From Gaiellales bacterium (GTDB lineage: Bacteria > Actinomycetota > Thermoleophilia > Gaiellales > JAICJC01): a stretch of DNA of 64,000 nucleotides. The notes beneath the pieces were generated by a model. The model made no database searches, was not told the origin of the DNA, and was given only the letters and a program-made list of their open reading frames with translations. Positions 4,417-58,256 of this stretch are shown here, piece after piece. A program made the position numbers and the translations under genes. Within the stretch, counting starts at the first letter, position 1. Every line of letters starts with the position of its first letter. The stretch lies in NCBI GenBank assembly GCA_036273515.1, contig DASUHM010000049.1:963-64962 (forward strand), in the 5' to 3' direction.

Positions 4417-5484
4417 ATGTTCGGCAAGTACGCCCTAACGCTTGGCCTCGCCATCACCGCCGCAGCGGTCCTCGGCGGGTGGTTCGGCGGCGCCGCCTCC
4501 GCGGCGCCGGCTCCGCGCGTCGCCCACCCCGCCGTCTTCAACCGCACCTCGGCGAGCGAGGCGCCCCAGCTCGGGGCGGCGGTGAACGACGTGATGCTGG
4601 CCAACGCCGGCCCGCGCTACGTCCGTACGCTGCTCGCGCACTACCGCTCGATCACGCCCGAGTGGGAGATGGAGATGAGCCAGCTCGAGCCGTCCCGCGG
4701 CCGCTTCACGTTCGCGAGGGCCGACGGGATCGTCGCCTTCGCCAACCGCCACAACATGCCCGTCCGCGGCCACACGCTGGTCTGGGACGAGATGGTGCCG
4801 AGCTGGGTGCTGCACGGCGACTGGACGCGGGCGCAGCTCGAGAGCGTCCTCCACACCTACATCACCACGGTCGTCTCGCACTACCGCGGCAAGGTGGAGG
4901 AGTGGGACGTCGTGAACGAGCCGCTCACCACCGACGGCCACATGCGCCAGAGCATCTGGGAGCGCGTGATCGGCCCCGGCTACGTTGCGCTCGCGTTCAG
5001 GTGGGCGCACGCGGCCGACCCGAACGCGCGGCTCTTCCTGAACGAGTACGGCGCCGAGTGGAACGACCCCAAGGAGCACGCGCTCTTCCAGCTCGTGTCC
5101 GGCCTGAAGGCGGCGGGCGTCCCCATCGGCGGCGTCGGCTTCCAGGCCCACCTGCTCCTCGACGCGCATCCGCCCCAGGCCGAGCTGACCGGTGTCCTGC
5201 GCCAGTTCGCCGCGCTTCGGCTGCGGCTCGAGATCACCGAGCTCGACGTCCGCGCCGGCGGCTCGGCGCCGCTCGCCACGCGGATGGCCGAGGAGGCCGC
5301 GATCTACAGGACCGTCGCCGCCTCGTGCGCCGCCGTGCGCGCCTGCGCCCGGGTGACGACCTGGGGCATCACCGACGCCGCCACCTGGATCGGGACGGCC
5401 AACCGGCCGCTCCCGTTCGACGCGCACTACCAGCCGAAGCAGGCCTGGTACGCGCTGCGCGCCGGCCTCACTCCTCGCGGCTGA
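4417..5484 (+). CDS. Secreted glycoside hydrolase family 10 endo-1,4-beta-xylanase
   Basis: N-terminal signal peptide. GH10 acid/base motif WDVVNEP and nucleophile motif ITELDV. Confidence 0.85.
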   Translation: MFGKYALTLGLAITAAAVLGGWFGGAASAAPAPRVAHPAVFNRTSASEAPQLGAAVNDVMLANAGPRYVRTLLAHYRSITPEWEMEMSQLEPSRGRFTFARADGIVAFANRHNMPVRGHTLVWDEMVPSWVLHGDWTRAQLESVLHTYITTVVSHYRGKVEEWDVVNEPLTTDGHMRQSIWERVIGPGYVALAFRWAHAADPNARLFLNEYGAEWNDPKEHALFQLVSGLKAAGVPIGGVGFQAHLLLDAHPPQAELTGVLRQFAALRLRLEITELDVRAGGSAPLATRMAEEAAIYRTVAASCAAVRACARVTTWGITDAATWIGTANRPLPFDAHYQPKQAWYALRAGLTPRG

Positions 5485-6905: not shown

Positions 6906-8021
6906 TCACCGAGCGAGGCCGCGCTGCGCCAGCTCGGCGTGCGCGGCTTCGGACCGGTCGTCGGCCTCCTGCTTCCGTACCCATGCGACCAACTCTCTCA
7001 TGCCCTCGCCGAAGTCGACAGCTGCGTCGAACCCGAGCAGCTCCCGTGCCTTCGAGACGTCCGCCCAGCAGTGGCGGATGTCGCCGGAGCGCGAGGTCGC
7101 GCTGATCCGGGCCGGCAGCTCGACGCCGATGTGCTCGGCCAGCACCTCGGCCACCTCGAGCACCGACACCGGCCGGCCGGTGCCGATGTTGATCGCCTCG
7201 CCGACCGCCGCCTGCGAGGTGAGGGCGAGGACGGTGGCGCGGGCGACGTCGTGCACGTGAACGAAGTCGCGCAGCTGCAGGCCGTCCTCGAAAACGAGCG
7301 GCGGCTGGCTGTTGATGAGCCGCGAGCTGAAGATGGCGGCGACGCCGGTGTAGGGGTTCGAGAGCGCCTGCCGCGGCCCGTAGGTGTTGAAGTAGCGCAG
7401 CGCGACGACGCCGATGTCGTAGGCACGGCCGACGGCCAGGCACATGAGCTCCTGGTCGAGCTTGGAGATCGCGTAGATCGAGGCGGGCGCGATCGGGGTC
7501 GTCTCGCTCGTCGGCACCGGGATCGCGTGGGCGCCGCAGGTCGGGCAGCGCATCTCCCAGTCGCGCCGGCCGAGCTGGGCGTCGTCGCGCACGAGCGGAT
7601 GGACGATCCCGTGGTCCTCGCACCGGTAGGCGCCCTCGCCGTAGACCGACATCGACGAGGCGACGACGATCCGCCTGACTGTGTGGGGCTCGTTCGCGAG
7701 CAGCTCGAGCAGGACGCCCGTGCCGCTCGTGTTCCCGTCGACGTAGCGGGTGATCTGGTACATCGACTGGCCGACCCCGACCTCGGCGGCGTGGTGGACG
7801 ATCGCGTCGACGCCCTTCAGGGCCTTGCGGAGGGCCGCCGCGTCGCGCACGTCGGCGTGGATGAACTCGGCGTCCGTGGGGACGTGGCGGGGGCCATGGC
7901 CGTTGTGCACCTGCTCGACGAGGCGGTCGTACACGCGCACCTCGTGACCCTGATCGAGCAGGAGGTCGGCGACGTGCGACCCGATGAACCCGGCGCCGCC
8001 GGTGATGAGCACGCGTGCCAC
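6906..8021 (-). CDS. NAD-dependent nucleotide-sugar epimerase/dehydratase
   Basis: GTG at 8021 preceded by GGAG. N-terminal Rossmann motif LITGGAGFIGSH and a YxxxK-type core (YAISK). Carries a CPTCG zinc-ribbon-like insertion. The longer ORF-track version (to 8171) lacks an RBS. Confidence 0.8.
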   Translation of the reverse strand: MARVLITGGAGFIGSHVADLLLDQGHEVRVYDRLVEQVHNGHGPRHVPTDAEFIHADVRDAAALRKALKGVDAIVHHAAEVGVGQSMYQITRYVDGNTSGTGVLLELLANEPHTVRRIVVASSMSVYGEGAYRCEDHGIVHPLVRDDAQLGRRDWEMRCPTCGAHAIPVPTSETTPIAPASIYAISKLDQELMCLAVGRAYDIGVVALRYFNTYGPRQALSNPYTGVAAIFSSRLINSQPPLVFEDGLQLRDFVHVHDVARATVLALTSQAAVGEAINIGTGRPVSVLEVAEVLAEHIGVELPARISATSRSGDIRHCWADVSKARELLGFDAAVDFGEGMRELVAWVRKQEADDRSEAAHAELAQRGLAR

Positions 8022-8158: not shown

Positions 8159-9094
8159 TTGGTTCTGTCAAGGAGAAGCGTTTCCCTCCTGGCCGCCTGC
8201 AAGAATCCGCCCGTGGAAACGGTCTCCGAGGCTGGCGCGGTCGAGGTGCTCCTGCGTCCCCGCGGGCCCTACTCGCTGGCCGACTCGGCCGGCCGCCCCG
8301 ATCCCACCCGCCGCTACCGCGGCGGCGTGCTCGACCTGGTGCTGGCCACGCCGGCCGGCCCGGCCCGGGCGCGGGTCTGGCAGCGGCCGGGCGGCGAGCT
8401 CGGCGCCCGGATCGCCGCGCCCGATACGGCCGCCGCCCACGACGCGCTCGCCTTCGTGCTCGCGCTCGACGTCGACCACTCGCCGTTCCTGCGCATGGCC
8501 GAGCGCGACCAACTGATCGGCGCCGTCGTGCGCCGCCGCCGCGGCGCCCGCCCGGCCCGGCTGGGCACGGTCGTCCACGCGCTCGTGCGGGCGGTGTGCG
8601 GCCAGCTGATCACCTCGCGCGAGGCGATGGAGATCGAGCGCCGCCTGATCTGGTCCACCTGCCCCCGCGAGGGCGACCTGCGCATCCCGCCGGGGCCGTC
8701 CGAAATCGGCCGCCTGAGCGCCGCATCGGCCGAGCGGGCCGGGCTCTCGCCGCGCCGGGCCGCGGCGCTCGTGCGGGTGGCCCGCACGCTCGACCTCGAG
8801 CGGCTGCGCGGCGTGCCCGCCCAGGCCGCGGTCGACCGCCTGTGTGCCGAGCCGGCGCTGGGGCCGTGGTCGGCCGGCGTGATCGCGCGAGACGGCCTCG
8901 GCTCCTACGCACACGGCCCGGTTGGCGACCTGGGCCTGATCAAGCTCTGCTCGGCGCTCCTCGGCCGTCGCGCGGACGTCGCCGACACGGCGGAGCTGCT
9001 CGGCCGCTACGGCGAGTGGGCCGGCCTGGCCGCCGCCCACCTGCTCCGCCACCCCCTGGCGCACGCCCGCTGGGCGGTCGCCCGGGCGGGCTGA
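8159..9094 (+). CDS. HhH-GPD DNA glycosylase (AlkA-like 3-methyladenine glycosylase II)
   Basis: Helix-hairpin-helix segment LGPWSAGVIARDGLG followed by the catalytic-Asp region PVGDLGL. The exact start is uncertain. Confidence 0.65.
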   Translation: MVLSRRSVSLLAACKNPPVETVSEAGAVEVLLRPRGPYSLADSAGRPDPTRRYRGGVLDLVLATPAGPARARVWQRPGGELGARIAAPDTAAAHDALAFVLALDVDHSPFLRMAERDQLIGAVVRRRRGARPARLGTVVHALVRAVCGQLITSREAMEIERRLIWSTCPREGDLRIPPGPSEIGRLSAASAERAGLSPRRAAALVRVARTLDLERLRGVPAQAAVDRLCAEPALGPWSAGVIARDGLGSYAHGPVGDLGLIKLCSALLGRRADVADTAELLGRYGEWAGLAAAHLLRHPLAHARWAVARAG

Positions 9095-13133: not shown

Positions 13134-13200
13134 CCGGGGTCTGACCCCGAACGGAACTGCAACGGAAGCGTCACGGCCGCCGTTCGGGGTCTGACCCCGG
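13134..13200. repeat. Inverted repeat: two 21-nt arms built on GGGGTCTGACCCCGAACGG, 25-nt spacer
   Basis: Arm 13134-13154 is CCGGGGTCTGACCCCGAACGG. Arm 13180-13200 is CCGTTCGGGGTCTGACCCCGG. They are complementary except at the central base. The same core recurs at 46282 and 58204. Confidence 0.8.
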
Positions 13201-34359: not shown

Positions 34360-35799
34360 ATGGAGCTCTCGACGCTGATCGAGGCAGTCGGGCCACGCTC
34401 GGTGCGCGGCCGGGCCGACACCGACATCACCGCCGTCACCTACCGCGCGGAGGCCGTCGTCCCCGGCGCGCTGCACGTGTGCGTGCCCGGATTCACCGCC
34501 GACGGCCACGACTTCGCCGGCGCCGCCGTGGCGAACGGCGCCGCCGCGCTCGTCGTCGAGCGCGAGCTCGGCTTCGACGTGCCCCAGCTGGTCGTCGCTT
34601 CCTCGCGCGCGGCCATGGCGGCCGCCGCGGCCGCGTTCTACGGCCATCCCAGCCGCGACCTCGACGTGGTCGGCATCACCGGCACGAACGGCAAGACGAC
34701 GACGGCCTTCCTGATGCACGCGGTGCTCGAGGCGGCGGTCGGGCAGGCCGGGCTGCTGGGGACGATCGAGTCGCGCATCGGCGGCGTCGTCGAGCAGGTG
34801 GCGCGGACGACTCCGGAGAGCGTCGACCTGCAGGCGATCCTGCGGCGGATGGCCGACGCCGGCGACCGGGCGTGCGCGATGGAGGTCTCGTCCCACGCCC
34901 TCGAGCTCGAGCGGGTGGCGGGCGTGCGCTTCGCCGCGGCCGGGTTCACGAACCTGACCCAGGACCATCTCGACTTCCACCCCGACATGGAGGCGTACTT
35001 CGCCGCCAAGGCGCGGCTCTTCCGCGAGGCGCCGGGGGCGATCAACGTGGGGGACGAGTACGGCCGCCGGCTGGCCGGGATGGCGGGCGGGCCCGTGCTC
35101 ACCTACGCGGCCCGGCCGGACGCCGACGCCGACGTGCGCCCGCACGCGGTGGAGGTGGGGGCGGGCGGCGCGATCGCCCTGATCGTCTCGACGCCGCGGG
35201 GACCGATCCCGCTCGACGTACGGCTGCGCGGCGGCTTCAACGTCGAGAACGTGCTCTGCGCCGTGACGCTCTCGGAGCTGCTCGACCTGCCGCACGCCGC
35301 CGTGCGCGCCGGGATCTCCGCCGTGCCGGGGGTGCCCGGCCGCTTCGAAGCGGTCGAGGCCGGCCAGCCGTTCACGGTGCTCGTCGACTACGCGCACACG
35401 CCCGACGGTCTCGAGAACGTGCTCCGCTCGGCGCGCGAGATCACGGTGGGGCGGCTGATCTGCGTGTTCGGGTGCGGCGGCGACCGCGACCGGGGTAAGC
35501 GGCCGCTGATGGGCCGGGTGGCGCGGCGGCTGGCCGACGTCGCCCTGGTCACCTCCGACAACCCCCGCAGCGAGGATCCCGAGGCGATCATCGCCGAGAT
35601 CATGGACGGCATCCCGATGGAATCCGACGCCGACCGCCGGGCCGCGATCGAGCGCGCCGTCGGCCTGGCCCGGCCCGGCGACGTCGTCGTGATCGCGGGC
35701 AAGGGCCACGAGCAGGGCCAGCAGTTCGCCGACCGCACGCTCCCCTTCGACGACCGCACGGTGGCGCGCGAGGCGCTGGCCGGGCTGCCGGCCGCATGA
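34360..35799 (+). CDS. murE: UDP-MurNAc-L-Ala-D-Glu:meso-diaminopimelate ligase
   Basis: GITGTNGKTTT P-loop. The DNPR motif indicates DAP specificity. Confidence 0.9.
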   Translation: MELSTLIEAVGPRSVRGRADTDITAVTYRAEAVVPGALHVCVPGFTADGHDFAGAAVANGAAALVVERELGFDVPQLVVASSRAAMAAAAAAFYGHPSRDLDVVGITGTNGKTTTAFLMHAVLEAAVGQAGLLGTIESRIGGVVEQVARTTPESVDLQAILRRMADAGDRACAMEVSSHALELERVAGVRFAAAGFTNLTQDHLDFHPDMEAYFAAKARLFREAPGAINVGDEYGRRLAGMAGGPVLTYAARPDADADVRPHAVEVGAGGAIALIVSTPRGPIPLDVRLRGGFNVENVLCAVTLSELLDLPHAAVRAGISAVPGVPGRFEAVEAGQPFTVLVDYAHTPDGLENVLRSAREITVGRLICVFGCGGDRDRGKRPLMGRVARRLADVALVTSDNPRSEDPEAIIAEIMDGIPMESDADRRAAIERAVGLARPGDVVVIAGKGHEQGQQFADRTLPFDDRTVAREALAGLPAA

Positions 35800-37118
35800 T
35801 CGCGCTCTCGGCGGGCGAGATCGCGCAGGCCTGCGGGGGGCGCACGGAGTCGGGGGCGACCATCACCGGGGTCACGACCGACTCGCGGGCGGTGGCGCAG
35901 GGCGACCTCTTCGTCGCCCTGCCCGGCGAGCGCACCGACGGCGCCCGCTACGCCGCCGCCGCCCTCGACGCCGGCGCGGCCGCGGTGATGGTCGCCGCGA
36001 CGCCGGGCCAGCCGCCGCCGGACGACCGCACCATCGCCGTCCCCGACCCGCTGATCGGCCTCGGCCGGCTGGCCGCCGAGGTGCGCCGCCGCTCAGGCGC
36101 CCGCGTCGTCGGCATCACCGGCTCGACCGGGAAGACGTCGACCAAGGACCTGCTCGCCGCGCTGCTGCGCCGGCGCCTGCGCACGGTCGCGAGCCACGCC
36201 AACTTCAACACCGAAATCGGCCTGCCGCTCACGCTCTGCCGGATCGAGGACGACACCGAGGCCGTCGTCTGCGAGCTGGCGATGCGGGGGATGGGCCAGG
36301 TCAGCTACCTGGCCGAGATCGCCCGGCCCGACGTCGCGGTCATCACGTCGGTCGGCCCCGTCCACCTCGAGCAGGTGGGGAGCATCGAGGGCGTCGCCGA
36401 GGCCAAGGCCGAGATCCTCGAGCCGCTCGGGCCGCGCGAGACGGCCGTCGTCCCGTACGCCGAGCCGCTGCTCGCCCCCTATCTGGATATCTCCCGCGCG
36501 CGCGTGAGCACCTTCGGGGAGGCGGAGGGGGCCGACGTGCGCCTGGCCGGCTTCACGGCGGGCAGGGCGGAGATCACGGTCGATGGTCGAACCATCACGG
36601 TGCCGGTGAACTTCGATCAGCACCACAACGGCCTCAACCTGACGGCCGCCGTCGCGGCCTGCGCCGCGCTCGGCCTCGACCCGGCCGATCCGGAGCTCCT
36701 GGCCGGTGCCGCCGAGGTCGAGTTCTCGCGCTGGCGGGGCGAGCGGATCGCGCTTCCCGGCGACGGCTTCGTGATCGCCGACTGCTACAACGCGAACCCG
36801 GTCTCGATGCGGGCGGCGCTGCGCCACCTGGCCTCCGCCGCCGGCAGCCGCCGCACCGTGGCGGTGATGGGCGAGATGGCCGAGCTCGGGCCGGCCGGGC
36901 CGGCGCTGCACGAGGAGATCGGCCGGGCTGCCGCGGAGATCGGCGTCGACCTGGTCGTCGCCGTCGGCCCGCTCAGCCGCGCGTACGGCGGGGAGTGGTT
37001 CGCCGACGCGGCCGCCGCGGCGGCCGCCGTGCCGGGCCTCCTCGAGCCGGGCGACGCGGTGCTCGTCAAGGGCAGCCGGTCGGCGGGCCTCGAGGCGGTC
37101 GTCGAGGCGCTCACGTGA
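35796..37118 (+). CDS. murF: UDP-MurNAc-tripeptide:D-Ala-D-Ala ligase
   Basis: ATGA overlap. GITGSTGKTSTK P-loop. Position after murE. Confidence 0.9.
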   Translation: MIALSAGEIAQACGGRTESGATITGVTTDSRAVAQGDLFVALPGERTDGARYAAAALDAGAAAVMVAATPGQPPPDDRTIAVPDPLIGLGRLAAEVRRRSGARVVGITGSTGKTSTKDLLAALLRRRLRTVASHANFNTEIGLPLTLCRIEDDTEAVVCELAMRGMGQVSYLAEIARPDVAVITSVGPVHLEQVGSIEGVAEAKAEILEPLGPRETAVVPYAEPLLAPYLDISRARVSTFGEAEGADVRLAGFTAGRAEITVDGRTITVPVNFDQHHNGLNLTAAVAACAALGLDPADPELLAGAAEVEFSRWRGERIALPGDGFVIADCYNANPVSMRAALRHLASAAGSRRTVAVMGEMAELGPAGPALHEEIGRAAAEIGVDLVVAVGPLSRAYGGEWFADAAAAAAAVPGLLEPGDAVLVKGSRSAGLEAVVEALT

Positions 37119-38149
37119 AGCTCGTCCTCGCCTCGGGCGTCGTCGCCATGCTGCTCGGGATCGTGTCGGGGCCGGCGTTGATCGCCTTCCTGCGCCGGCA
37201 CGAGTTCGGGCAGCACATCCGCGAGGACGGCCCGGCCGGCCACGCCTCCAAGCAGGGCACGCCCACCATGGGCGGCCTGGGCATGCTCGGGTGCGCGCTG
37301 CTGGCCTTCCTGATCTTCACCGAGCACACCGGGCCCGGCCTGGCCGTCGCCGGGACGGCGCTCGCGTGCGCCGGGATCGGGTTCCTCGACGACTACCTGA
37401 AGCTGACGCGGAAGCGGTCGCTGGGCCTGTCGGGGCGATGGAAGCTCTTGCTGCTGGCGGCGGTCGTCGCCGGGGTGGGCGTCGTGGCGCACCGCGAGCA
37501 CCTCTCGACCGACCTCTACCTGCCGCTCTTGAACACCTACATCGCGCTCGGGCCGTTCTACTACGTGTTCATCTTCCTGGTCGTCGCCGGGGCGGCGAAC
37601 GCGGTCAACCTGACCGACGGGCTCGACGGTCTGGCGGCCGGCACCGTGACGATCGCCGCGCTCACGTATGCGGCGATGATGGTGGTCGCGTTCCTGGCCC
37701 ACAACGGCGTCTACCCGGGCCACACCATCGACGGCGTCTACGTGGGGAACCCCCGCGCCCTCGACCTCGCGATCATCGCGGCGGCGCTCGTCGGCGGCTG
37801 CGTGGGCTTCCTCTGGTACAACGCCTACCCGGCCGACGTGTTCATGGGCGACACGGGGTCGTTCGGGCTGGGCGGCGGCCTGGCGGCGCTCGCGATCTTC
37901 ACGAAGACGGAGGCGCTGCTCGTGGTCGTCGGCGGCGTGTTCGTGATCGAGGCGCTCTCGGTCGCGATCCAGGTCGTGTCGTTCCGGGTCTTCGGGAAGC
38001 GGGTGTTCCTGATGGCGCCGCTGCACCATCACTTCGAGATGATGGAGTGGACCGAGAACAAGATCATCGTCCGCTTCTGGATCACGGCGGCGATCTTCGG
38101 CGCGAGTGGCTTCGTCCTCTACTACCTCTTCTTCTCGAGCTACCGGTGA
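37115..38149 (+). CDS. mraY: Phospho-MurNAc-pentapeptide translocase
   Basis: GTGA overlap. Polytopic membrane protein. Motifs KQGTPTMGG, NAVNLTDGLDGLA, HHHFE. Confidence 0.9.
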   Translation: MKLVLASGVVAMLLGIVSGPALIAFLRRHEFGQHIREDGPAGHASKQGTPTMGGLGMLGCALLAFLIFTEHTGPGLAVAGTALACAGIGFLDDYLKLTRKRSLGLSGRWKLLLLAAVVAGVGVVAHREHLSTDLYLPLLNTYIALGPFYYVFIFLVVAGAANAVNLTDGLDGLAAGTVTIAALTYAAMMVVAFLAHNGVYPGHTIDGVYVGNPRALDLAIIAAALVGGCVGFLWYNAYPADVFMGDTGSFGLGGGLAALAIFTKTEALLVVVGGVFVIEALSVAIQVVSFRVFGKRVFLMAPLHHHFEMMEWTENKIIVRFWITAAIFGASGFVLYYLFFSSYR

Positions 38150-39426
38150 GCGGGCGCTACCTGGTCGTCGGGCTGCGCCGTTCGGGGATCGCGGCGTGCG
38201 AGGCGATCGCGCGGGTCTGGCCCGGTTCCGAGATCCTGGCGGCCGACCGCGGCACCGACCTCGACGTGTCGCGGCTCTCCGCGCTCGGGATCGAGCCGCG
38301 GCTGGGCGGCGAGCTCGCGCCCGTCGACGGCCTCACCGCGCTCGTGAAGAGCCCGGGCGTGCCCGGCGAGGCCCCCCAGGTGGCGGCGGCGCGGGCGGCC
38401 GGCGTGCCGGTGTGGAGCGAGGTCGAGCTGGCGGCGCGGATGATGCCGGAGAACCCGATCGCCGGGGTCACCGGGACGAACGGCAAGACGACGACCACGC
38501 ACCTGCTCGGCGCGATGCTGCGCGCCGGCGGGATCGAGGCGGAGGTGGCGGGCAACGTCGGCCGCGCGCTGACCGAGCTGCCCGGCCGCGTGGCGGCGGG
38601 GACGTGGATCGCCTGCGAGCTCTCGAGCTTCCAGCTCGAGGACATCCACCGCTTCCGCTGCCGGGTGGCGGTGATCCTGAACGTGACGCCCGACCACCTC
38701 GACCGCCACGGCAGCATGGAGGAGTACGTGCGCTGCAAGCTGCGCATCCTCGAGAACCAGGTCGCCGGCGACACCGCCGTCCTGAACGGCGACGACCCCG
38801 TGCTGCGGGCGGCCGACCTGCCGGGTGCCGGGACGCGCGAGTGGTTCGCGGCGAGCGAGCCGGGGCCGCTCGACTGGGAGCACGCCCGCCTGCGCGGGCA
38901 GCACAACCTCGAGAACGCGGTCGCCGCCGCGGCCGCCGCGCGCGCGGTTGGGGCGAGCGACGCGGCCGTGAACGCGGCACTGCGCGACTTCGATCCGCCG
39001 CCGCACCGGCTCCGGCCGGTCGCCGCGGCCCGGGGCGTCGAGTGGGTAGATGACTCGAAGGCCACGAACCCCGACGCGACGGTGAAGGCGCTGACGGCCT
39101 TCGACCACGGCGTCCACCTGATCCTGGGCGGCTCGCGCAAGGGCGGATCGTTCGCCGGGATGGCCGTGGCGATCGCGGCCGGGCCGGTGGCGCGCTCGTA
39201 CCTGATCGGCGCGTCCGCCGACGCGATCGCCGCAGCCCTGGACGCTACCGGCGCCGGCTACGTGCACTGCGGGACGCTCGAGCGGGCCGTGGCCGACGCC
39301 TCCGCCGCGGCCGCCGCCGGCGACACGGTCCTGCTCTCGCCGGCCTGCGCCAGCTTCGACCAGTTCCGCGACTACGAGCAGCGCGGCGAGCGCTTCGCCG
39401 AGCTCGCCCGCGCCGCCGCTGGATAA
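38146..39426 (+). CDS. murD: UDP-MurNAc-L-Ala:D-Glu ligase
   Basis: GTGA overlap. GVTGTNGKTTTT P-loop. Position after mraY. Confidence 0.9.
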   Translation: MSGRYLVVGLRRSGIAACEAIARVWPGSEILAADRGTDLDVSRLSALGIEPRLGGELAPVDGLTALVKSPGVPGEAPQVAAARAAGVPVWSEVELAARMMPENPIAGVTGTNGKTTTTHLLGAMLRAGGIEAEVAGNVGRALTELPGRVAAGTWIACELSSFQLEDIHRFRCRVAVILNVTPDHLDRHGSMEEYVRCKLRILENQVAGDTAVLNGDDPVLRAADLPGAGTREWFAASEPGPLDWEHARLRGQHNLENAVAAAAAARAVGASDAAVNAALRDFDPPPHRLRPVAAARGVEWVDDSKATNPDATVKALTAFDHGVHLILGGSRKGGSFAGMAVAIAAGPVARSYLIGASADAIAAALDATGAGYVHCGTLERAVADASAAAAAGDTVLLSPACASFDQFRDYEQRGERFAELARAAAG

Positions 39427-39478
39427 CCGGTGCCAGGCACCGCGATTTCATGCAGGTGACCGCGGCCGCGCGGCGAAC

Positions 39479-40825
39479 ATGTCCATGGGTTCCTTGGGGG
39501 TGCCTGTGGCGAGGTTGCACGCGATCAACGACAGCGGGGGGAGCGGAGAGGCCGCGGAACGGCGGGCGCAGGCCCGACGGCGCAGCTCGAGCTCCCACCA
39601 GATCGAGTACCACCTGCTGCTCCTGCTCACCCTCGGGCTGGTCGCCTTCGGCCTGATCATGGTCTACAGCGCGTCGAGCGGCATCGCCGTCGTGAACGGC
39701 GCCAACCCGCTCTCGCCGCTGATGCGCCAGGGGATCTACGCCGTGCTCGGCGTCGGCTGCATGGTCGGCGCCGCCCGGTTCCGCTACAAGCGCCTGCGGA
39801 TGCTGGCGCCCCTGCTCATGCTGATGGCGCTGATCGGGCTCGTGATGGTGAAGGTGCCGGGGATCGGCGTGCGCATCAACGGCGCCGAGCGCTGGATCGT
39901 CGCCGGGCCGCTGACGCTGCAGCCCTCGGAGTTCGCGAAGCTCGCGATGGTCGTCTTCTGCGCCGCCGTCCTCACCGCGCGGAAGCGCCCGCCCCGCACC
40001 ATCAAGGAGCTCGTGAACCCGGTCGGGCTGGCCGCCCTGATCGTGTGCGGCCTGGTCGCGCTCGAGCCCGATCTGGGCACGACGATCGCGATCGCCGTCA
40101 TGGTCACGGGCGTCCTGATCGTCGCCGGCACGCCGTTCCGGCTGCTCGTCGGCACGGCCGGGATCGTCTCGGCCGGCGCCGCGCTCGTCATCTCCCAGAA
40201 CGCCTACATGCACGCCCGCCTGCTCGCGTTCATGCACCCCTGGCAGGATGCCGGTGGCAGCGGCTACCAGAACGTGCAGGCCCTGCTCTCGCTCGGATCG
40301 GGCGGCATCTGGGGCAAGGGCCTCGGCCAGGGCACCGTCAAGAACGGGTACCTGCCGGAGGCGCCGAGCGACATGATCGCCGCCGTCATCGGCGAGGAGC
40401 TGGGCCTCATCGGGATCCTCGTCACCGTGCTCGCATTCGCCGCCTTCGCGGTGCTCGGCTTTCGGATCGCGATGCGCACGAAGGACCCGTTCGGCAAGTT
40501 TCTCGCCACCGGGATCACCTGCCTCGTCACCGGCCAGGCCGTCGTGAACCTGGGCGCCGTGCTCGGCTTCCTGCCTCTCACGGGCGTCCCGTTGCCGCTG
40601 ATAAGCTCAGGCGGATCCAGCCTGATCGTGTTCCTCACCCTGATCGGGACGCTCCTGAACGTCGCCGACAGCGAGCGGGCAGTCGCCCGCAAGGCAGTGC
40701 CCGCCGATGACACCGCCGCCAGCCGCAAGCGACCCCGGCCGCAGCCCGCGGGTGCTGATCGCCGCCGGAGGAACCGCAGGCCACGTCGTGCCGTCGCTGG
40801 CGGTGGCCGCCGAGCTCACGGCTAG
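39479..40825 (+). CDS. ftsW: FtsW/SEDS family peptidoglycan polymerase
   Basis: Polytopic SEDS pattern (GLGQG..K..YLPEAPSDMI, PLPLISSGGSS). The Arg-rich C-terminal tail overlaps murG. Confidence 0.85.
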   Translation: MSMGSLGVPVARLHAINDSGGSGEAAERRAQARRRSSSSHQIEYHLLLLLTLGLVAFGLIMVYSASSGIAVVNGANPLSPLMRQGIYAVLGVGCMVGAARFRYKRLRMLAPLLMLMALIGLVMVKVPGIGVRINGAERWIVAGPLTLQPSEFAKLAMVVFCAAVLTARKRPPRTIKELVNPVGLAALIVCGLVALEPDLGTTIAIAVMVTGVLIVAGTPFRLLVGTAGIVSAGAALVISQNAYMHARLLAFMHPWQDAGGSGYQNVQALLSLGSGGIWGKGLGQGTVKNGYLPEAPSDMIAAVIGEELGLIGILVTVLAFAAFAVLGFRIAMRTKDPFGKFLATGITCLVTGQAVVNLGAVLGFLPLTGVPLPLISSGGSSLIVFLTLIGTLLNVADSERAVARKAVPADDTAASRKRPRPQPAGADRRRRNRRPRRAVAGGGRRAHG

Positions 40826-41804
40826 GGGCGCCGATGTCGTGTTCGCCGGCACCCCCGAGCGGATCGAGTCCCGGCTCGTCCCCGCCGCCGGCTACCCGCT
40901 GCACACCTACCACGTCACCGGCTTCCCCCGGAAGCCGTCGCTCGGCCTCATCCGGGGGCTCGGCCTGGCGGCCGTCGCGCCGGCGGCGTGCACGCGCATC
41001 CTCCGCCGCGTGCGGCCGGACGTCGTCTTCGGCGGCGGGGGATACGTGGCGGGGCCGATGCTCGCCGCTGCCGCCGGCATGCGCATCCCTGCGGCGCTGA
41101 TGGAGGTGGACGCCCACCTCGGCCTCGCCAACCGGATGGCCGCCCCGTTCGCGCGGCGCGTGTTCCTCTCGTTCCCCATCGGCGACCTGGGCCCGCCCCG
41201 CTACCAGCTCACCGGCCGGCCCGTGCCGCGGGCGGTGCTCGACGCGACGGCCGAGCAGGGCCGGCGCGAGTTCGACCTGCCGGCCGACCGCCGGGTCGTG
41301 CTCGTCTTCGGCGGCAGCCTCGGCTCGACCACGCTGAACCGGGCCGCCACCGCCGCCTGGGCAGCCGACGACCCCGGCTTCACCGTCGTCCACATCACCG
41401 GCGAGCGCGAGTTCGCGCTCTCGTCCGGGCGGGCGGCGGCGCACTACCGCGTGCTGCCGTACACGGCGAGCCTGGGGCCGCTGCTGGCCGCCGCCGACCT
41501 GGTCGTCTCGCGGGCCGGTGGGTCGGTGTTCGAGATCGCCGCCGCCGGCCGGCCCGCGATCCTCGTGCCCTCGCCGAACGTGACCGCCGACCACCAGTCG
41601 CGGAACGCCGAATTCATCGCCGACGGCGGGGCCGCCATCGTCATCGGCGACAACGAGCTGACCGCCGTGCGGCTCGCCACCGAGGTCGACAAGCTGCTCG
41701 CAGACCCCGACCGGCTGACCGGAATGTCGGAGGCCGCCCGCCGGCTGGCGCGGCCTGACGCCGGCGAGCGGATCGCGACCGAGCTCCTGGCGCTGGCCCG
41801 ATGA
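40707..41804 (+). CDS. murG: Lipid I N-acetylglucosaminyltransferase
   Basis: AAGGTAGHVVPSLAVA N-terminal motif and GGS...SRAGGS..E C-terminal motif. Alternative GTG start at 40752. Confidence 0.9.
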   Translation: MTPPPAASDPGRSPRVLIAAGGTAGHVVPSLAVAAELTARGADVVFAGTPERIESRLVPAAGYPLHTYHVTGFPRKPSLGLIRGLGLAAVAPAACTRILRRVRPDVVFGGGGYVAGPMLAAAAGMRIPAALMEVDAHLGLANRMAAPFARRVFLSFPIGDLGPPRYQLTGRPVPRAVLDATAEQGRREFDLPADRRVVLVFGGSLGSTTLNRAATAAWAADDPGFTVVHITGEREFALSSGRAAAHYRVLPYTASLGPLLAAADLVVSRAGGSVFEIAAAGRPAILVPSPNVTADHQSRNAEFIADGGAAIVIGDNELTAVRLATEVDKLLADPDRLTGMSEAARRLARPDAGERIATELLALAR

Positions 41805-43147
41805 CGCTGGCCGACCGGAGGCTGCACATGATCGGGATCGGCGGCGCCGGCATGTCGGCGTTGGCCGTCGTCGCATACGCCTGGGGCGCCGACGTGTCGG
41901 GGTGCGACCGCACGCCGTCGGAGTACTCGCTGCGCCTGCGCCGGTTCGGCATCGACGTCTCGGAGGGGCACGATCGCGGCCACCTCGAGCCCGGCATGGA
42001 GGTGGTCGTCTCCTCGGCCGTGCCCGACGAGCTCGACGAGCTGGCCGCGGCGTCCGAGCTCGGGCTGCGCGTGCTGCACCGGGGCGAGCTGCTGGCCCAG
42101 CTGGTGGCCGAGCGGCGCTCGATCTGCGTCGCGGGCGCGCACGGGAAGACGACGACGACGGCGATGCTCGCCTTCGCGGCCGACCGGATCGGGCTCGATC
42201 CGACCTGGCTCGTCGGCGGCGAGGTGCCGCAGCTCGGCGGCAATGCCGGACCGGGCGGGGGAGACCTGCTGATCGCGGAGGGGGACGAGTCCGACGGCAG
42301 CTGCGCGCTCCTGCGCCCGCGCGTCGCCGTGATCACGAACGTCGACCTCGATCACCACGCTCGCTACGCGTCGGTGCACGACGTCGAGCGCCTGTTCGCC
42401 GAGTGGGTCGCGCACGTGCCCGCGGACGGGGCGGTGGTGCTCGGCGACGGCGTCGCCCTGCCGGCCGGGGCGGCGCCCGTTGTGCGGTTCGGCTTCGACG
42501 AGGGCGCCAATTGGCATATCAGCGGCTTCCACAGCGGCCCGGAGGGGTCGCGGTTCTGGCTCTCGGTGCCCGACGAGCTCCCGGTCGACGTCACCCTGCG
42601 GGTGCCCGGCGCCCACAACGCTCGCAATGCCGCCGGCGCGATCGCCGCCCTGGCCGCGGCCGGGGCGAGCGCGGCCGATGCGGCCGCGGCGCTCGCCGAG
42701 TTCACCGGCGTCGGCCGCCGTTTCGAGGTGCGCGGGCGGGTCGCCGGGGCGACCGTCGTCGACGACTACGCGCACAACCCGGCCAAGGTCGCCGCCGCCA
42801 TCGACGCCGCCCGCACGCACGCGCCGGCACGCGTGGTGGTCTGCTTCCAGCCCCACCTCTACTCACGCACGGCCGCGTCGGCGCACGAGTTCGGCGGCGC
42901 GCTGGCCGGCGCCGACGAGGTGGTCGTCACCGAGATCTACGCCGCCCGCGAGCGGCCCCAGCCGGGGGTGACCGCGAAGCTCGTCGTCGACGCCCTGGCG
43001 GAGCGGCGGCCGGGGATGCCGCTCGCCTACATGCCGGGACTGGGCGACGCCGCCGCCTACCTGCGCGGGCGCGTGCGCGAGGGCGACCTCGTCCTCACCG
43101 TCGGCGCGGGCGATGTCCGCAGCGTGGGCGACGAGCTGCTGCGATGA
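41801..43147 (+). CDS. murC: UDP-MurNAc:L-Ala ligase
   Basis: ATGA overlap. GIGGAGMSALA and AGAHGKTTTT motifs. Confidence 0.9.
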   Translation: MTLADRRLHMIGIGGAGMSALAVVAYAWGADVSGCDRTPSEYSLRLRRFGIDVSEGHDRGHLEPGMEVVVSSAVPDELDELAAASELGLRVLHRGELLAQLVAERRSICVAGAHGKTTTTAMLAFAADRIGLDPTWLVGGEVPQLGGNAGPGGGDLLIAEGDESDGSCALLRPRVAVITNVDLDHHARYASVHDVERLFAEWVAHVPADGAVVLGDGVALPAGAAPVVRFGFDEGANWHISGFHSGPEGSRFWLSVPDELPVDVTLRVPGAHNARNAAGAIAALAAAGASAADAAAALAEFTGVGRRFEVRGRVAGATVVDDYAHNPAKVAAAIDAARTHAPARVVVCFQPHLYSRTAASAHEFGGALAGADEVVVTEIYAARERPQPGVTAKLVVDALAERRPGMPLAYMPGLGDAAAYLRGRVREGDLVLTVGAGDVRSVGDELLR

Positions 43148-44037
43148 GCGCCGTTCCCGCCTGCGTCGAGCCGGACTACCCGGTGTCGCGGCTGACCACG
43201 GTCGGCACGGGCGGCCGGGCGCGCTTTCTTGCCCGGCCCGGCACCGGCGCCGAGCTGGCCGGGGTGCTGAGCTGGGCCGATGCGGGCGCGCTCGACGTGG
43301 CCGTGGTCGGGCTCGGCTCGAACCTGCTGGTCGCCGACGAGGGCTACGACGGCGTCGTCCTGCGCCTGGCCGGCGGCCTCGCCCGGATCGAGCGCGACGG
43401 CGAGCGGGTCGTGTGCGGCGGCGGCGCCTCGCTGGCCGCCGTCGTGAAGCGGGCGACCGGCTGGGGCCTCTCCGGCATCGAGTTCGGATGCGCCATCCCG
43501 GGCACGGCCGGCGGCGCGGTGCGGATGAACGCGGGCGCGTACGGCGGCGAGCTGCGTGACGTGCTCGACAGGGCGGTGGTGGTCGGCGCCGGCGGCGAGC
43601 GGGCCGGCGGGCCGGACGAGCTCGGCATGCGCTACCGGCACTCGAACGTCGGGCCGCGCGAGGTCGTCGCCGAGGCGGTGCTGCGGCTGCGGCCCGACGA
43701 CACGGAGCGGATCCGGGCGACCGTGGCCGACATGCAGCGGCGCCGGCGCGAGGCCCAGCCGGCCAAGGTGCGCACGTTCGGGTCGGTGTGGAAGAACCCG
43801 GGCGGCGACCTGTCCGCCGGGCGCATCCTCGAGGAGTGCGGGCTCAAGGGCTTCACGGCCGGCGGCGCCCGCATCTCGCCGGTGCACGCGAACTTCATCG
43901 AGAACACGGGCGATGCTCGCTCCGCCGACGTGATCGCGCTGATGCAGGAGGCGCGGCGGCGGGCCCGCGAGCGCTTCGGCGTGGAGCTCGAGCACGAGGT
44001 GCAGATGCTCGGGCCGATCGGGCTTTCAGATGGTTGA
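43144..44037 (+). CDS. murB: UDP-N-acetylenolpyruvoylglucosamine reductase
   Basis: ATGA overlap. FAD-binding GLGSNLLV. C-terminal MurB domain (GSVWKNP, ISPVHANF). The last codons and stop lie inside the repeat at 44028. Confidence 0.9.
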   Translation: MSAVPACVEPDYPVSRLTTVGTGGRARFLARPGTGAELAGVLSWADAGALDVAVVGLGSNLLVADEGYDGVVLRLAGGLARIERDGERVVCGGGASLAAVVKRATGWGLSGIEFGCAIPGTAGGAVRMNAGAYGGELRDVLDRAVVVGAGGERAGGPDELGMRYRHSNVGPREVVAEAVLRLRPDDTERIRATVADMQRRRREAQPAKVRTFGSVWKNPGGDLSAGRILEECGLKGFTAGGARISPVHANFIENTGDARSADVIALMQEARRRARERFGVELEHEVQMLGPIGLSDG

Positions 44038-44132
44038 TCGGCAGCTCCCGTGACAGCCGCAGCCCACGAGCGCCCCGAACGCCCGCCAACAGCCTGACGT
44101 CCGGGCGCGCGCGAGCTGCCGATCAACCATCT
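44028..44132 (-). mobile_element. 105-bp MITE-like element (truncated family member) between murB and ftsQ
   Basis: Perfect 20-bp terminal inverted repeats, AGATGGTTGATCGGCAGCTC (44028-44047) and its complement (44113-44132). The interior matches elements at 56915 and 51550 in reverse orientation, including an exact 17-mer at 44086-44102 = revcomp of 56944-56960. Confidence 0.6.
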
Positions 44133-50104: not shown

Positions 50105-51558
50105 AGCTCATCTACGAGAAGTCGCGCGCGGGCCGGCGGGCGGGCCGCATCCCCGATCCGGGCGTCCAGGTCGCCGAGGTGCCGGCGGAGCTGGCGCGCA
50201 CCACCCCGCCGCGGTTGCCGGAGCTGGCCGAGCCTGAGCTCGTGCGCCACTACACCGAGCTCTCGACGCGGACGTTCGGGATCGACACGGGCTTCTACCC
50301 GCTCGGCTCCTGCACGATGAAGTACAACCCGCGCATCAACGAGCGTGCGGTCGGCCTGCCCGGCTTCGCCGACCTGCACCCCCACCAGGAGGACGAGGGC
50401 GCCCAGGGCGCGCTCGAGCTGATGTGGCGGCTGCAGGAGATGCTGGCCGAGGTGGTCGGCCTCGATGCGGTCACGCTCCAGCCGGCAGCCGGGTCGCAGG
50501 GCGAGCTGACCGGCCTCACGCTCATGCGGGCCCACTTCGCGGACCGCGGCGAGGACCGCACGGAGGTGATCATCCCCGACACCGCCCACGGCACCAACCC
50601 GGCCAGCGTCGCGATGGCGGGCTACACGCTCGTGCGCGTGAAGACCGACGTGCGCGGCAACGTCGACGTCGACGACCTGCGCGGCAAGGTGGGGGAGCAC
50701 ACGGCGGGGCTCATGCTGACCAACCCGTCGACGCTCGGCCTGTTCGAGGAGCGGATCTCCGAGATCGCCGACATCTTCCACTCGGCCGGCGCGCTCCTCT
50801 ACTACGACGGCGCCAACCTGAACGCCGTGTGCGGCATCTCCCGGCCGGGCGACATGGGCTTCGACATCGTCCACTACAACCTGCACAAGACGTTCTCGCA
50901 GCCGCACGGCGGCGGCGGGCCGGGCGGCGGGCCGGTGGCAGTGCGGCGCGACCTCGAGCAGTTCCTGCCGGTGCCGGTGGTCGTCCGCGACGGCGACACT
51001 TTCCGGCTCGAGAGCGACCGGCCGAAGACGATCGGCAAGGTGCGCGGGTTCGGCGGGCCGTTCGGCGTCTTCGTGCGCGCCTACGCGTTCATGCGCATGT
51101 GGGGGCCGGGCCTGCGCGACATGTCCGAGGTGGCCGTCCTGAACGCGAACTACGTGCTGGCGCGGCTGAAGGGCGCATACGACCTGCCCGTCGACCGCCA
51201 CTGCATGCACGAGTTCGTCGTCTCGGCCCGCACCCTCAAACGCGAGCACGGGATCACGGCGCTCGACGTCGCCAAGCGGCTGATGGACCACGGGTTCCAC
51301 CCGCCCACGATCTACTTCCCCCTGATCGTGTCCGAGGCGCTCATGATCGAGCCGACCGAGACGGAGACGCGCGAGACGCTCGACGCGTTCTGCGAGGCGA
51401 TGCTCGCGATCGCGCAGGAGGCCGGCGACGATCCGCAGATGCTGAAGGACGCGCCGCACACGCGGCCGGTGACCCGGCTCGACGAGGCCGAGGCGGCCAA
51501 GCGCCTGCTCGTACGCTACGGGTTCGACGAGCACCCGACGTCCGGGCTAGATGAATGA
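50101..51558 (+). CDS. gcvPB: Glycine dehydrogenase (decarboxylating) subunit 2
   Basis: ATGA overlap. [11 protein letters not shown], and the PLP-lysine context [16 protein letters not shown]. The last codons and stop lie inside the repeat at 51550. Confidence 0.9.
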
Positions 51559-51748
51559 TCCCACACCTCTGCGCACCTGGGCGCCCGGCTGTGAGGGGTG
51601 TTCGGCGTGCTGGTGGGGCTGCGGCTGCGAACCGTCGCATCGCTGTGTCCTCGGTCGCGCCCATACAACCAGGTATGAGCGCTCCCTGCGTCCTCGCGCT
51701 GCCCGGTTCGCAGCCGCCCAGGACACACCGGGCGTGGAATCAGTCATC
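51550..51748 (+). mobile_element. 199-bp MITE-like element filling the gcvPB-HAD intergenic gap
   Basis: Terminal inverted repeats GATGAATGATCCCAC (51550-51564) and GTGGAATCAGTCATC (51734-51748), 13 of 15 complementary. Flanked by TA on both sides. Collinear similarity to 56915-57112. Confidence 0.6.
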
Positions 51749-51751
51749 TAG

Positions 51752-55483: not shown

Positions 55484-56923
55484 GTGTCGTCCCGTCCCGT
55501 CTGCGTCCGCATGCCGCCCAGCCCGACCGGGCTCTTCCACGTCGGCACGGTGCGCACGATGCTCTTCAACTGGCTCTTCGCCCGCGGCCGCGGCGGCAGG
55601 GTCGTGCTGCGGTTCGAGGACACGGACGTCGCCCGCTCCACCGAGGCCGCCGTCGAGCACGCCGAGGCGGTGCTGCGCTGGCTCGGGATCGACTGGGACG
55701 ACGGGCCCTACCGGCAGACGCAGCGCTACGACCTCTACCGGGCCGCCGCCGAGGACCTGATCGCGCACGGCAAGGCCTACCGCTGCTACTGCACCGAGGC
55801 CGAGCTGGCCGAGGAGCGAGCCCGCCGCCAGGCCGACGGCCGGCCGCTGATCTACAGCGGCCGCTGCCGGCACGCAGCGGCGGCCGAGCTCGAGGCGCTC
55901 GCCGCGGAGGGCCGGCCCGCGGTCGTGCGCCTGGCCCTGCCGGCGTCCGGCACCACCGTCATCGAGGACGTCGTCCACGGCACGGTCGAGTGGGACAACG
56001 CCCTCCAGGGCGACCACGTGATCCTGCGGTCGGACGGGTCGCCGACCTATCAGTTCGCGAACCCGTTCGACGACATCGCCATGGGCGTGACCTACGTGAT
56101 CCGCGGCGAGGACCTGATGCCGTCGACGCCGCGCCAGCTGGCGCTCTACCGCGCGCTCGACGCCCCGGAGCCGGTCTTCGCCCACCTGCCCATGGTGCTC
56201 GGGCCGGACAAGCGCAAGCTCTCGAAGCGGCACGGCGCGATCTCGGTCGAGGAATTCCGCGACGCGGGCGTGATCGCGGATGCGCTCGTGAACTACCTGG
56301 CGCTCGTCGGCTGGAGCTTCGACGACCACACGAACTTCATGACGCGGCCCGAGCTGATCGAGCGGTTCACGCTCGAGCGGGTGACCAAGAGCCCGGGCGT
56401 GTTCGACCCGGAGAAGCTCGAGTGGCTGAACGGCGAGCACCTGCGCGCGCTTGCGCCCGAGACGTTCGTGAAGGAGCTCCAGGACTACCTCGTCTCCGCG
56501 GCCTCGCCGCTGGCCGACCAGCCGGAGCAGGTTGCCGAGGCGGCGCCGCTCGTGCAGGAGAAGATGCGCGTGCTGGGCCAGTTCCCGCGCCTCGCCGGGT
56601 TCCTGTTCGGCCCGCCGGAGCGCGATCCGGCCGCCTGGGAGCGGGTGGGCAAGGACGAGCGCGCGCCGGCGTCCCTGCGGGCCGCCCGCGAGGCGCTCGC
56701 CGAGGTCGATCCGTGGACGGCCGAGGCGATCGAAGCGGCCCTGCACGCCGCCTGCGAGCGGCAGGGCGTGAAGCCGCGCGCGCTCTTCATGCCGGTGCGG
56801 GTCGCGCTCACCGGGAGCACCGTCTCGCCGGGGCTGTACGAGAGCCTGGAGCTGGTGGGCCGGGACGAATCGCTCGCCCGGCTCGACGCTGCGCTCGCCG
56901 ATCTCCCCGCCGTCGATGATTGA
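55484..56923 (+). CDS. gltX: Glutamate--tRNA ligase
   Basis: Class I motifs: a HIGH-type PSPTGLFHVG and a KMSKS-type KLSKRHG. The last codons and stop lie in the repeat at 56915. Confidence 0.9.
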   Translation: MSSRPVCVRMPPSPTGLFHVGTVRTMLFNWLFARGRGGRVVLRFEDTDVARSTEAAVEHAEAVLRWLGIDWDDGPYRQTQRYDLYRAAAEDLIAHGKAYRCYCTEAELAEERARRQADGRPLIYSGRCRHAAAAELEALAAEGRPAVVRLALPASGTTVIEDVVHGTVEWDNALQGDHVILRSDGSPTYQFANPFDDIAMGVTYVIRGEDLMPSTPRQLALYRALDAPEPVFAHLPMVLGPDKRKLSKRHGAISVEEFRDAGVIADALVNYLALVGWSFDDHTNFMTRPELIERFTLERVTKSPGVFDPEKLEWLNGEHLRALAPETFVKELQDYLVSAASPLADQPEQVAEAAPLVQEKMRVLGQFPRLAGFLFGPPERDPAAWERVGKDERAPASLRAAREALAEVDPWTAEAIEAALHAACERQGVKPRALFMPVRVALTGSTVSPGLYESLELVGRDESLARLDAALADLPAVDD

Positions 56924-57112
56924 TTCCACCTCCCCGCGAGCCTGGACGTCAGGCTGTTGGTGCGGGTTCGGACTGTTGGTTGGGGCTGCGCCTCAGCGTC
57001 TGCGTCATCGCAGACGCCTCGGACCGCGGTCAAGCGCATCCACGCTCCCTGCGTCCTTGCGCTGCTCGGTTCGCAACCGCCGAGACCGCACAGGGTCGTG
57101 GAATCGATCATC
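56915..57112 (+). mobile_element. 198-bp MITE-like element downstream of gltX
   Basis: Terminal inverted repeats GATGATTGATTCCAC (56915-56929) and GTGGAATCGATCATC (57098-57112). Internal 9-bp-stem hairpin at 56996-57017. Collinear with 51550-51748. Confidence 0.6.
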
Positions 57113-58194: not shown

Positions 58195-58203
58195 CCGACA
58201 ATC

Positions 58204-58216
58204 GGGGTCAGACCCC
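58204..58216. repeat. GGGGTCAGACCCC palindromic motif copy (extends to CGGGGTCAGACCCCGAACGGG, 58203-58223)
   Basis: Same 19-20 nt as the arms at 13134 and 13180. Lies in a convergent intergenic gap. Followed by GTTGC-N5-GTTGC. Confidence 0.7.
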
Positions 58217-58256
58217 GAACGGGGGCTGTTGCACTCCTGTTGCGAAGTTGTGACGC

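Follow-up and report, generated by a model that had tools for sequence, protein, structure and literature searches.

The nearest known relatives in behavior of the repeat described here are the ERIC/IRU sequences. The repeat, called copy A (51550-51748, + strand), is 199 bp long and lies between gcvPB and a HAD-family gene in a stretch of 64,000 nucleotides (hereafter the window) of contig DASUHM010000049.1 from a Gaiellales bacterium (assembly GCA_036273515.1). [quoted passage not shown] This family and ERIC/IRU are both imperfect palindromes of 100 to 200 bp in transcribed intergenic regions, with TA at both termini and a conserved center, and in both some copies have extra internal modules. 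Neither ERIC nor the family here is known to have a cognate transposase. The family here differs from ERIC in host phylum and sequence, in placing several arm sets on one core, in the tie of its insertions to TAG stops, in arms that carry stop codons and Shine-Dalgarno (SD) motifs, and in near-identical copies that mark recent activity. ERIC is co-transcribed, and how it affects mRNA depends on its orientation (PMC3184786).

MITEs derived from the insertion sequence (IS) IS630, such as Correia/NEMIS, RUP, and Nezha, resemble the family in several respects: both have terminal inverted repeats, a TA target, and TA flanks, measure 100 to 200 bp, fold into hairpins, and occur in many copies per genome, at sites that are filled in some relatives and empty in others (PMC2817692; PMC3184786). 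Correia and RUP are the classic bacterial MITEs of the IS630/Tc1-mariner type (PMC2817692). Unlike these, the family here has yielded no parent IS with matching ends, is most conserved in its interior and not at its termini, and has arms that covary and show a strand asymmetry in their mismatches. Chunjie, a MITE of Geobacter uraniireducens, reportedly inserted in an operon without disrupting it. Like the family here, Chunjie is about 200 bp long, has a very stable RNA fold, and lies in or overlaps gene clusters (PMC3184786). It is A+T-rich with 9-bp direct repeats, whereas the family here is 70% G+C with TA flanks.

REP/REPIN-RAYT systems likewise comprise abundant extragenic palindromes that form hairpins just 3' of genes, and some subfamilies here start with GTGG, like some REP heads. 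REPs, however, are 20 to 40 nt long and REPINs have conserved ends and a variable middle, whereas no RAYT was seen here and type-I elements start with GATG; the arrangement of a 20- to 40-nt REP with a GTAG/GTGG head in an inverted pair around a short variable spacer was not found. BOX repeats of Streptococcus pneumoniae are likewise modular, and the upstream gene often takes its stop codon from them, as in 36 of 58 overlapping coding sequences (PMC3049150), but they consist of boxA/B/C modules, have no TA-G...C-TA architecture, and belong to another phylum. In outline, the family is an ordinary mobile repeat; what is unusual is the combination of one core with many arm sets, arms that act as stop/SD adaptors, and strand-specific wobble.

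Insertion at the gcvPB stop codon

Copy A follows gcvPB, which encodes glycine dehydrogenase subunit 2 (Pfam domains PF02347/PF21478), and precedes an open reading frame (ORF) of the HAD family. Its boundaries agree with a preliminary description made from the window alone: the terminal inverted repeats GATGAATGATCCCAC (51550-51564, +) and GTGGAATCAGTCATC (51734-51748, +) are complementary at 13 of 15 positions, TA stands on both sides (51548-51549 and 51749-51750), the element-supplied TGA stop of gcvPB (51556-51558, +) falls inside the left repeat, and the GTG start of the HAD-family ORF (51752) lies 3 nt past the right repeat. The consensus terminal pattern matches the 64 kb only at the four ends of copy A and a second copy, copy B, with 0.68 matches expected by chance.

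Five relatives are empty at this junction. Two of them, L001 and L002, are soil metagenome contigs found by exact-protein look-up with the FtsZ of the window; their gene order is that of the window, protein identities are 98% for gcvPB and 89% for HAD, and the gcvPB-HAD flanks of the window and L001 are 94% identical at the nucleotide level. In both contigs the gcvPB TAG directly abuts the HAD GTG (...TCCGGGTAGGTGCTG...). The other three, L248, L249, and L250, are more distant relatives reached via HAD homologues. The string GGGTAGGTG is read at the empty junction in L001, L002, and L248, and in L249 and L250 the TAG is followed by 8 to 10 nt and then GTG. The empty site has a single TA (GGG-TA-GGTG), as opposed to GGGc-TA-[element]-TA-GGTG when filled, and the filled junction of the window reads ...TCCGGGc-TA-[199 bp]-TA-GGTGCTG. 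Because all five relatives are empty, the empty state is ancestral and the lineage of the window gained the element at the stop-codon TA. Copy A was thus inserted into the TA of the gcvPB TAG stop, which originally abutted the GTG of the next gene. The left TA is read as one copy of the duplicated target and forms TAG with the first G of the element; the right TA is the second copy and, together with G51751, constitutes the original TAG abutting the GTG at 51752. The same filled allele was found in L127, a Logan contig from SRR25158402 that breaks off within the element. Exact-protein look-ups with the SDR, gcvPB, and gltX products of the window found no record.

The filled site of the window also has an extra C at 51547 that is absent in all five empty-site relatives. 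This base shifts the gcvPB frame, which now stops three codons later at the TGA of the terminal repeat and gains the residues Leu-Asp-Glu. The gene still terminates because the element end TAGATGAWTGA has stops in all three frames, and cTAGaTGAaTGA in the left repeat of copy A provides a stop codon in each of them.

Joined-flank searches showed that many other orthologous junctions are also empty in other genomes, which bears out the mobility proposed in the preliminary description. In the filled/empty pairs that can be resolved (L238/L017, L095:899/L246, L137/L165, and a TAATG junction in L007), one TA is present when the site is empty and TA stands on both sides when it is filled; three to four pairs besides gcvPB-HAD therefore fit a TA duplication, and older copies in ribosomal protein operons are too diverged to resolve it. 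At the "empty" ribosomal protein junctions of L246 (~4670-4680) and L238 (~2010-2020), we observed the terminus-like strings TAAGT-CTGAG and TAG-TCACCAC-ATG, which could be excision or deletion footprints.

On one or both sides of an element, long ORFs with high third-position G+C (GC3) terminate no more than 12 nt inside it. Stop codons in use are TAG in 43 cases, TGA in 17, and TAA in 8, with a background TAG frequency of 34%, and divergent gene pairs seldom flank elements. Since TA is rare in a genome of 73% G+C, stop codons are among the few targets available, and since the element starts with G, TA plus G regenerates a TAG stop. Around type-I copies the TA is preceded by C in 59% and followed by G in 91%, a CTAG-like context.

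A large family with one core and several arm sets

A family of three copies had been proposed from the window, and this number holds within it, but hundreds of members exist elsewhere. Scanning a genome collection with a 20-base core pattern returned at least 120 loci, and scanning metagenomes with the other half of the core returned at least 120 more. In all, at least 240 further loci have relatives of the element, mostly in Gaiellales/Thermoleophilia metagenome-assembled genomes (MAGs) and soil metagenomes. Among the matches listed, those of the genome scan are nearly all in MAGs labeled Gaiellaceae, Gaiellales, Thermoleophilia, or "Actinomycetes," often with several per MAG. A profile search gave about 45 near-full-length type-I matches and about 80 matches restricted to the central core, which represent sister subfamilies with other arms. 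The 39 type-I matches with enough flank to read both ends are all at different sites, and such copies at unrelated sites in many genomes uphold the original MITE-like reading. In one MAG (MFD02416.bin.1.334), three type-I copies at different sites (L093, L094, and L099) are 98.5 to 99% identical, which implies recent spread.

The ends of the element, left to be defined by the preliminary description, can be placed between flanking TAs as TA-GATGATTGAT...ATCAATCATC-TA. Across the 39 full-length copies, the type-I consensus is nTA-GATGATTGATTCC...GGAATCAATCATC-TAG, also written nTA-GATGATTGATTCCACGCCCCCGCGCGCCTGG...CCAGGACATCACGGGGGCGTGGAATCAATCATC-TAG, and the type-I end TAGATGATTGA has stops in all three frames. 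The pattern TA-G...C-TA is common to every subfamily. Arms differ among subfamilies yet stay complementary, and a core of about 95 nt is common to all. Elements of the family are 125 to 330 nt long with a G+C content of 70%, and the copies measured for comparison with MITEs are 199 to 212 bp and occur several per genome. Terminal repeats, TA duplication, presence/absence polymorphism, and a small, non-coding, many-copy character are thus all found together, as in TA-duplicating MITEs.

No conserved ORF runs through the element in 38 type-I copies, in line with the absence of coding capacity noted from copy A. The element had not been recognized as a named repeat, and indeed no Rfam family matches it: Rfam 15 gave no match in the window at the gathering score, only chance microRNA matches at E <= 5, and no match on the elements in seven other loci. 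Collections of plasmids, phages, and viral contigs contained no similarity to the element, and literature searches retrieved no description of the repeat family.

Several variants were observed along the way. Type-I copies of 260 to 330 nt have extra hairpin modules at fixed internal points (L096 5247-5570; also L102, L056, L088, L052, and L106), a modular build that recalls BOX and ERIC variants. Four core-bearing elements occupy an 8-kb ribosomal protein operon stretch of a Thermoleophilia MAG (L095 929-1035, 1847-1956, 4267-4376, and 4797-4903), and the same four junctions are empty in other genomes. MAGs labeled "Candidatus Rokubacteria" carry many compact elements of about 125 nt with the same core, found in MAG MFD10007.bin.2.196 (L011, L022, L034, L044, L063, L064, L069, L074, L082, L101, L116, L118, and L123) as well as at L037. 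These have short GC-rich arms, GGGCGGGGCCGATGAGCG and CGCTCCTCGGCCCCGCCC, usually stand directly after a TAG stop, and have a semi-conserved tail on the 3' side.

The two other copies in the window are degenerate. Copy B (56915-57112, +) is a rearranged type-I copy after gltX. Its collinear alignment with copy A, previously reported, is sound (72% identity over 209 columns), although the 5' half of its core is missing and its TA flanks have decayed; it resembles a long variant of the L096 type minus the 5' core half, and the TGA stop of gltX (56921-56923) falls within its left repeat. For copy C (44028-44132, - strand), the partial alignment described earlier was recovered in refined form, since it aligns to copy A only as the reverse complement and only with the outer parts of both arms. 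Copy C is an arms-only, reverse-oriented remnant without the inner left arm, core, and inner right arm (about 104 nt gone, including the core); its hairpin has a 20-bp perfect stem, and the TGA stop of murB (44035-44037) sits in its terminal repeat. Because L001 has a full-length, reverse-oriented copy of 212 nt at the same murB-ftsQ site (1259-1470), copy C is an older, shared insertion that was later internally deleted. Long hairpins are predicted for all three copies (z = -4.2, -6.7, and -6.9 relative to dinucleotide shuffles).

Core structure, covarying arms, and strand polarity

The conserved core of copy A (51623-51715, +) can be drawn as three helices. P1 pairs 51623-51634 with 51704-51715, P2 pairs 51637-51643 with 51696-51702 and holds a conserved U.C mismatch, and the P3 hairpin spans 51657-51682, with near-invariant loops at 51644-51656 and 51683-51695. 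P1 to P3 were drawn by hand and tested separately; the RNAalifold interior prediction for type I was set aside. Among 92 aligned cores, the internal-loop strands CGUCCUCGGUC and CUCCCUGCGUCCUU are almost invariant and P3 has changes on both sides at 9 of its 10 pairs. The covariation score of the same alignment is 0.292, compared with 0.095 after shuffling (none of 500 shuffles reached 0.292) and at most 0.07 in slid controls. Flipped or compensated variants of P2 occur in copies free of the constraint of the search pattern. In the 113 metagenome loci, the core half that had not been used for searching is exact in 76 and has at most two mismatches in 103; since this unused half is conserved too, both halves are conserved regardless of how loci were ascertained.

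The arms follow a different rule. In 38 aligned type-I copies the outer stem stays paired, and the subterminal 7-10 positions vary on both sides in 12 to 20 sequences. One MAG with eight type-I copies has eight distinct arm sequences, each of which is complementary to its own partner arm. Covariation had been suggested as a way to tell a mobile repeat from a structured RNA; the evidence supports mobility, but real covariation was also found, and the dichotomy was therefore false. What the element represents is a mobile repeat whose structure is constrained.

Two origins for this composite build were considered. Insertion of the core as a separate unit into older hairpins was rejected, as 72 of 75 type-I arm matches carry the core and the 3 coreless ones are deletion remnants or contig ends. 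Copying of the arms from target flanks was unsupported: 5 matches were counted, and controls had a mean of 2.1 and a maximum of 5.

The core is lost or decayed in static-looking copies, namely copies B and C of the window and the partly deleted L081:3592, and active-looking lineages retain it. Because the core decays in immobile copies, it is more likely to be needed in cis for propagation than to serve the host at each locus.

The family also has a polarity. The + strand of the core is mRNA-sense in 46 of 57 tandem contexts and in 56 of 70 in a larger set. In 143 elements, most arm mismatches are A.C when read on the + strand, which makes them G.U or G.T on the - strand (387 versus 83, raw counts that are inflated by common ancestry among copies but consistent in direction), and the direction of the bias is identical in every host context. 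Mismatches in the subfamily consensus arms are distributed 25 to 6, type III having solely A.C mismatches, five of them, and P3 has two C.A mismatches that become U.G on the opposite strand. The core, with its three helices and two near-invariant loops, is purine-rich on the - strand. The asymmetry of arm mismatches belongs to the element and not to host transcription. It hints at a folded single-strand intermediate: some step of the life cycle may use the folded - strand, with host selection removing insertions that would place the better-folding strand in mRNA. Alternatively, the asymmetry could be the mark of deamination on a - strand that is frequently single stranded.

Fit of the elements to operon junctions

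Many copies lie exactly between ribosomal protein genes, including L23-L2, S17-L14, S10-L3, and L22-S3, and the junctions that are occupied differ between genomes. In non-type-I elements, ATG or GTG comes immediately after the end of the 3' arm, which reads ...GGAGAGACCAC-TA or TG. The 3' arm of sister subfamilies has GGAG 6 to 8 nt upstream of the next start codon, an SD motif stands 5 to 16 nt ahead of the adjacent downstream start in 48 of 75 elements, and the 5' arm has CUCC, complementary to the SD. Type I is without a good SD. Because the whole element forms one long hairpin, its base puts the upstream stop beside the downstream start; in copy A, the new stop (51556-51558) and the GTG (51752) are juxtaposed in this way. 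The copy A hairpin may thereby preserve a putative translational coupling between gcvPB and the HAD-family gene.

Neither a promoter consensus nor an intrinsic terminator consensus (a G+C-rich hairpin followed by a U-tract) was found in the elements. A look-alike of an SD and ATG on the - strand, GAGGACGnnGCGATG, was rejected as a translation start, the ATG being lost wherever P2 covaries.

Mobilization and competing explanations

As a non-autonomous MITE, the element would be mobilized in trans. Our leading candidate for the mobilizer, put forward with some reserve, is a TA-duplicating DDE transposase of the IS630/Tc1-mariner-like or IS5/IS427 group. The TA flanks, terminal repeats, and CTAG-like context match MITEs of the IS630/Tc1-mariner type, and IS630 itself has a preference for CTAG. 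The core is probably a cis-acting need for propagation and not a host function. What would make insertions at operon junctions tolerable is the hairpin together with the stop codons and, for sister subfamilies, the SD of the 3' arm. A ribosome that terminates within the 5' arm would open the stem, which would make the start codon accessible.

An autonomous parent was sought. Type-I ends always pair 200 to 330 nt apart. Generic TA-flanked inverted repeats 0.6 to 3.5 kb apart, tried as candidates for a parent IS, came down to one small pair in L162: a TA-flanked, perfect palindrome of 22 nt, TAGGGGCGAGGCnnGCCTCGCCCCTA, in two copies 1.16 kb apart (7636-7661 and 8772-8797), which are not IS ends. 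In L028, two inverted copies enclose queA and tgt, and no RAYT (Y1 transposase) gene lies between the paired copies examined.

Several points weigh against copy A as a MITE moved by a DDE transposase. Sampled loci totaling about 1.5 Mb, along with plasmids, phages, and viral contigs, yielded neither the full-length IS with the same terminal repeats that the preliminary description had proposed looking for nor any autonomous element or transposase whose ends match. Three features are unusual for a DDE-type MITE: compensatory variation in the subterminal arms, conservation of the core across subfamilies with differing ends, and a 5:1 strand bias in arm mismatches that does not depend on host transcription. 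A clean TA duplication leaves the extra C at 51547 unaccounted for, and the flanking TAs could be mimicked by a single-strand mechanism that inserts beside TA with an element itself ending in TA. Finally, the translational-coupling role of the elements is putative.

Covarying arms, a conserved center, and strand asymmetry fit a single-strand route better, whether of the HUH type or based on RNA, and we regard such a route as a possible but weaker candidate for mobilization. In its fullest form, a REPIN-like element would be moved by a strand-specific enzyme (HUH/Y1, such as RAYT or the IS200/IS605 TnpA, or RNA-templated) that recognizes the core on a folded single strand; the arms would only need to pair, and TA would not be a duplication but the dinucleotide that is cleaved or targeted. 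A fixed core flanked by heavily covarying arms, the eight self-complementary arm sets in one MAG, the mismatch bias in both raw and consensus counts, and the failure to find a DDE partner all agree with this explanation, as do the non-type-I ends that begin with GTGG like some REP heads (REP sequences listed in PMC2817692). However, no HUH or reverse transcriptase gene was seen near any copy, type-I ends start with GATG and not GTAG/GTGG, and an element of 125 to 330 nt with a conserved center and variable ends is the reverse of REPIN anatomy. The mismatch counts are, moreover, inflated by shared ancestry. IS200/IS605 elements have a lagging-strand-template bias, and the best-folding strand here, antisense to most host genes, is opposite to it. 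We consider this explanation doubtful. A related and equally speculative possibility is that the family is a distinct kind of bacterial mobile repeat, selected as a folded single - strand (single-stranded DNA or RNA). An enzyme would recognize the core of about 95 nt, and the arms would need only to pair and to end in G...C beside TA; they would have evolved into operon-junction adaptors, and host selection would keep the weaker-folding strand in mRNA.

The elements could instead be host-selected, cis-acting RNA modules that serve intercistronic processing, stability, translation coupling, or ribosome standby, are repeated by chance, and owe their conservation to a function at each locus. This is unlikely. 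Covariation in P3, P2, and the outer stem, near-invariant loops, and the conservation of each core half when the other was used for ascertainment are what such modules would show, and the bias toward sense orientation in tandem pairs (46 versus 11, or 56 versus 14 in the larger set), the recurrence in ribosomal protein operons, and the stop codons and SD within the arms point the same way; effects at the level of RNA have a precedent in ERIC (PMC3184786). Yet the orthologous junctions of close relatives are empty, copies B and C lost their core without apparent harm, the wobble pairs favor the strand that is usually absent from mRNA, and the near-identity of copies at unrelated loci points to transposition as the means of spread and not to locus-specific selection. 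An intercistronic mini-ORF, translated like MIRU with start and stop overlapping those of the flanking genes, is largely refuted and highly improbable. Some copies in ribosomal protein operons are open from TAATG to TGATG, including both L020 copies, and type-I ends contain TAGATG. But length, frame, and stop positions are inconsistent, with only about 16 of 38 type-I copies reading through; indels break the frame between copy A and L020; the variation reflects compensatory base pairing and not synonymous substitution; and the - strand ATG is lost whenever P2 covaries.

Unrelated repeats and RNAs

A second, unrelated repeat in the window, CGGGGTC(T/A)GACCCCGAACGG with the small hairpin GGGGTCnGACCCC, occurs in three copies (13135-13154, +; 13180-13199, -; 58203-58222, +), where chance would give 0.02. 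An inverted doublet of two of these copies, spaced 45 nt apart, looks REPIN-like. The direct-repeat families D2 and D7 (34665-42172) were rejected as mobile repeats, since they correspond to the conserved motifs for nucleotide binding in the paralogous Mur ligase genes of the dcw cluster. One element-bearing contig also has a thiamine pyrophosphate (TPP) riboswitch (L075 3821-3936; RF00059, 57.8 bits) that is unrelated to the element.

Implications for the family and its hosts

The repeats have practical consequences for genome data, as they break short-read assemblies (L127 ends within one) and extend or alter the C termini of annotated genes, which in the window are gcvPB, gltX, and murB. 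The family offers a natural experiment in which a selfish element is tolerated in essential operons by targeting the TA of stop codons and rebuilding the stop, and sister subfamilies also bring a ribosome-binding site for the next gene. Were the element selected as a folded strand, its arms would be adaptors whose entry side has stop codons and whose exit side has an SD, and the presence of the same core in a MAG labeled "Candidatus Rokubacteria" would mean spread across phyla. The conserved core, covarying arms, and strand-specific wobble are not predicted for a transposase that reads terminal repeats, and they may point to an unrecognized mobilization mechanism or a cis-acting RNA in a soil lineage that is widespread yet almost uncultured.

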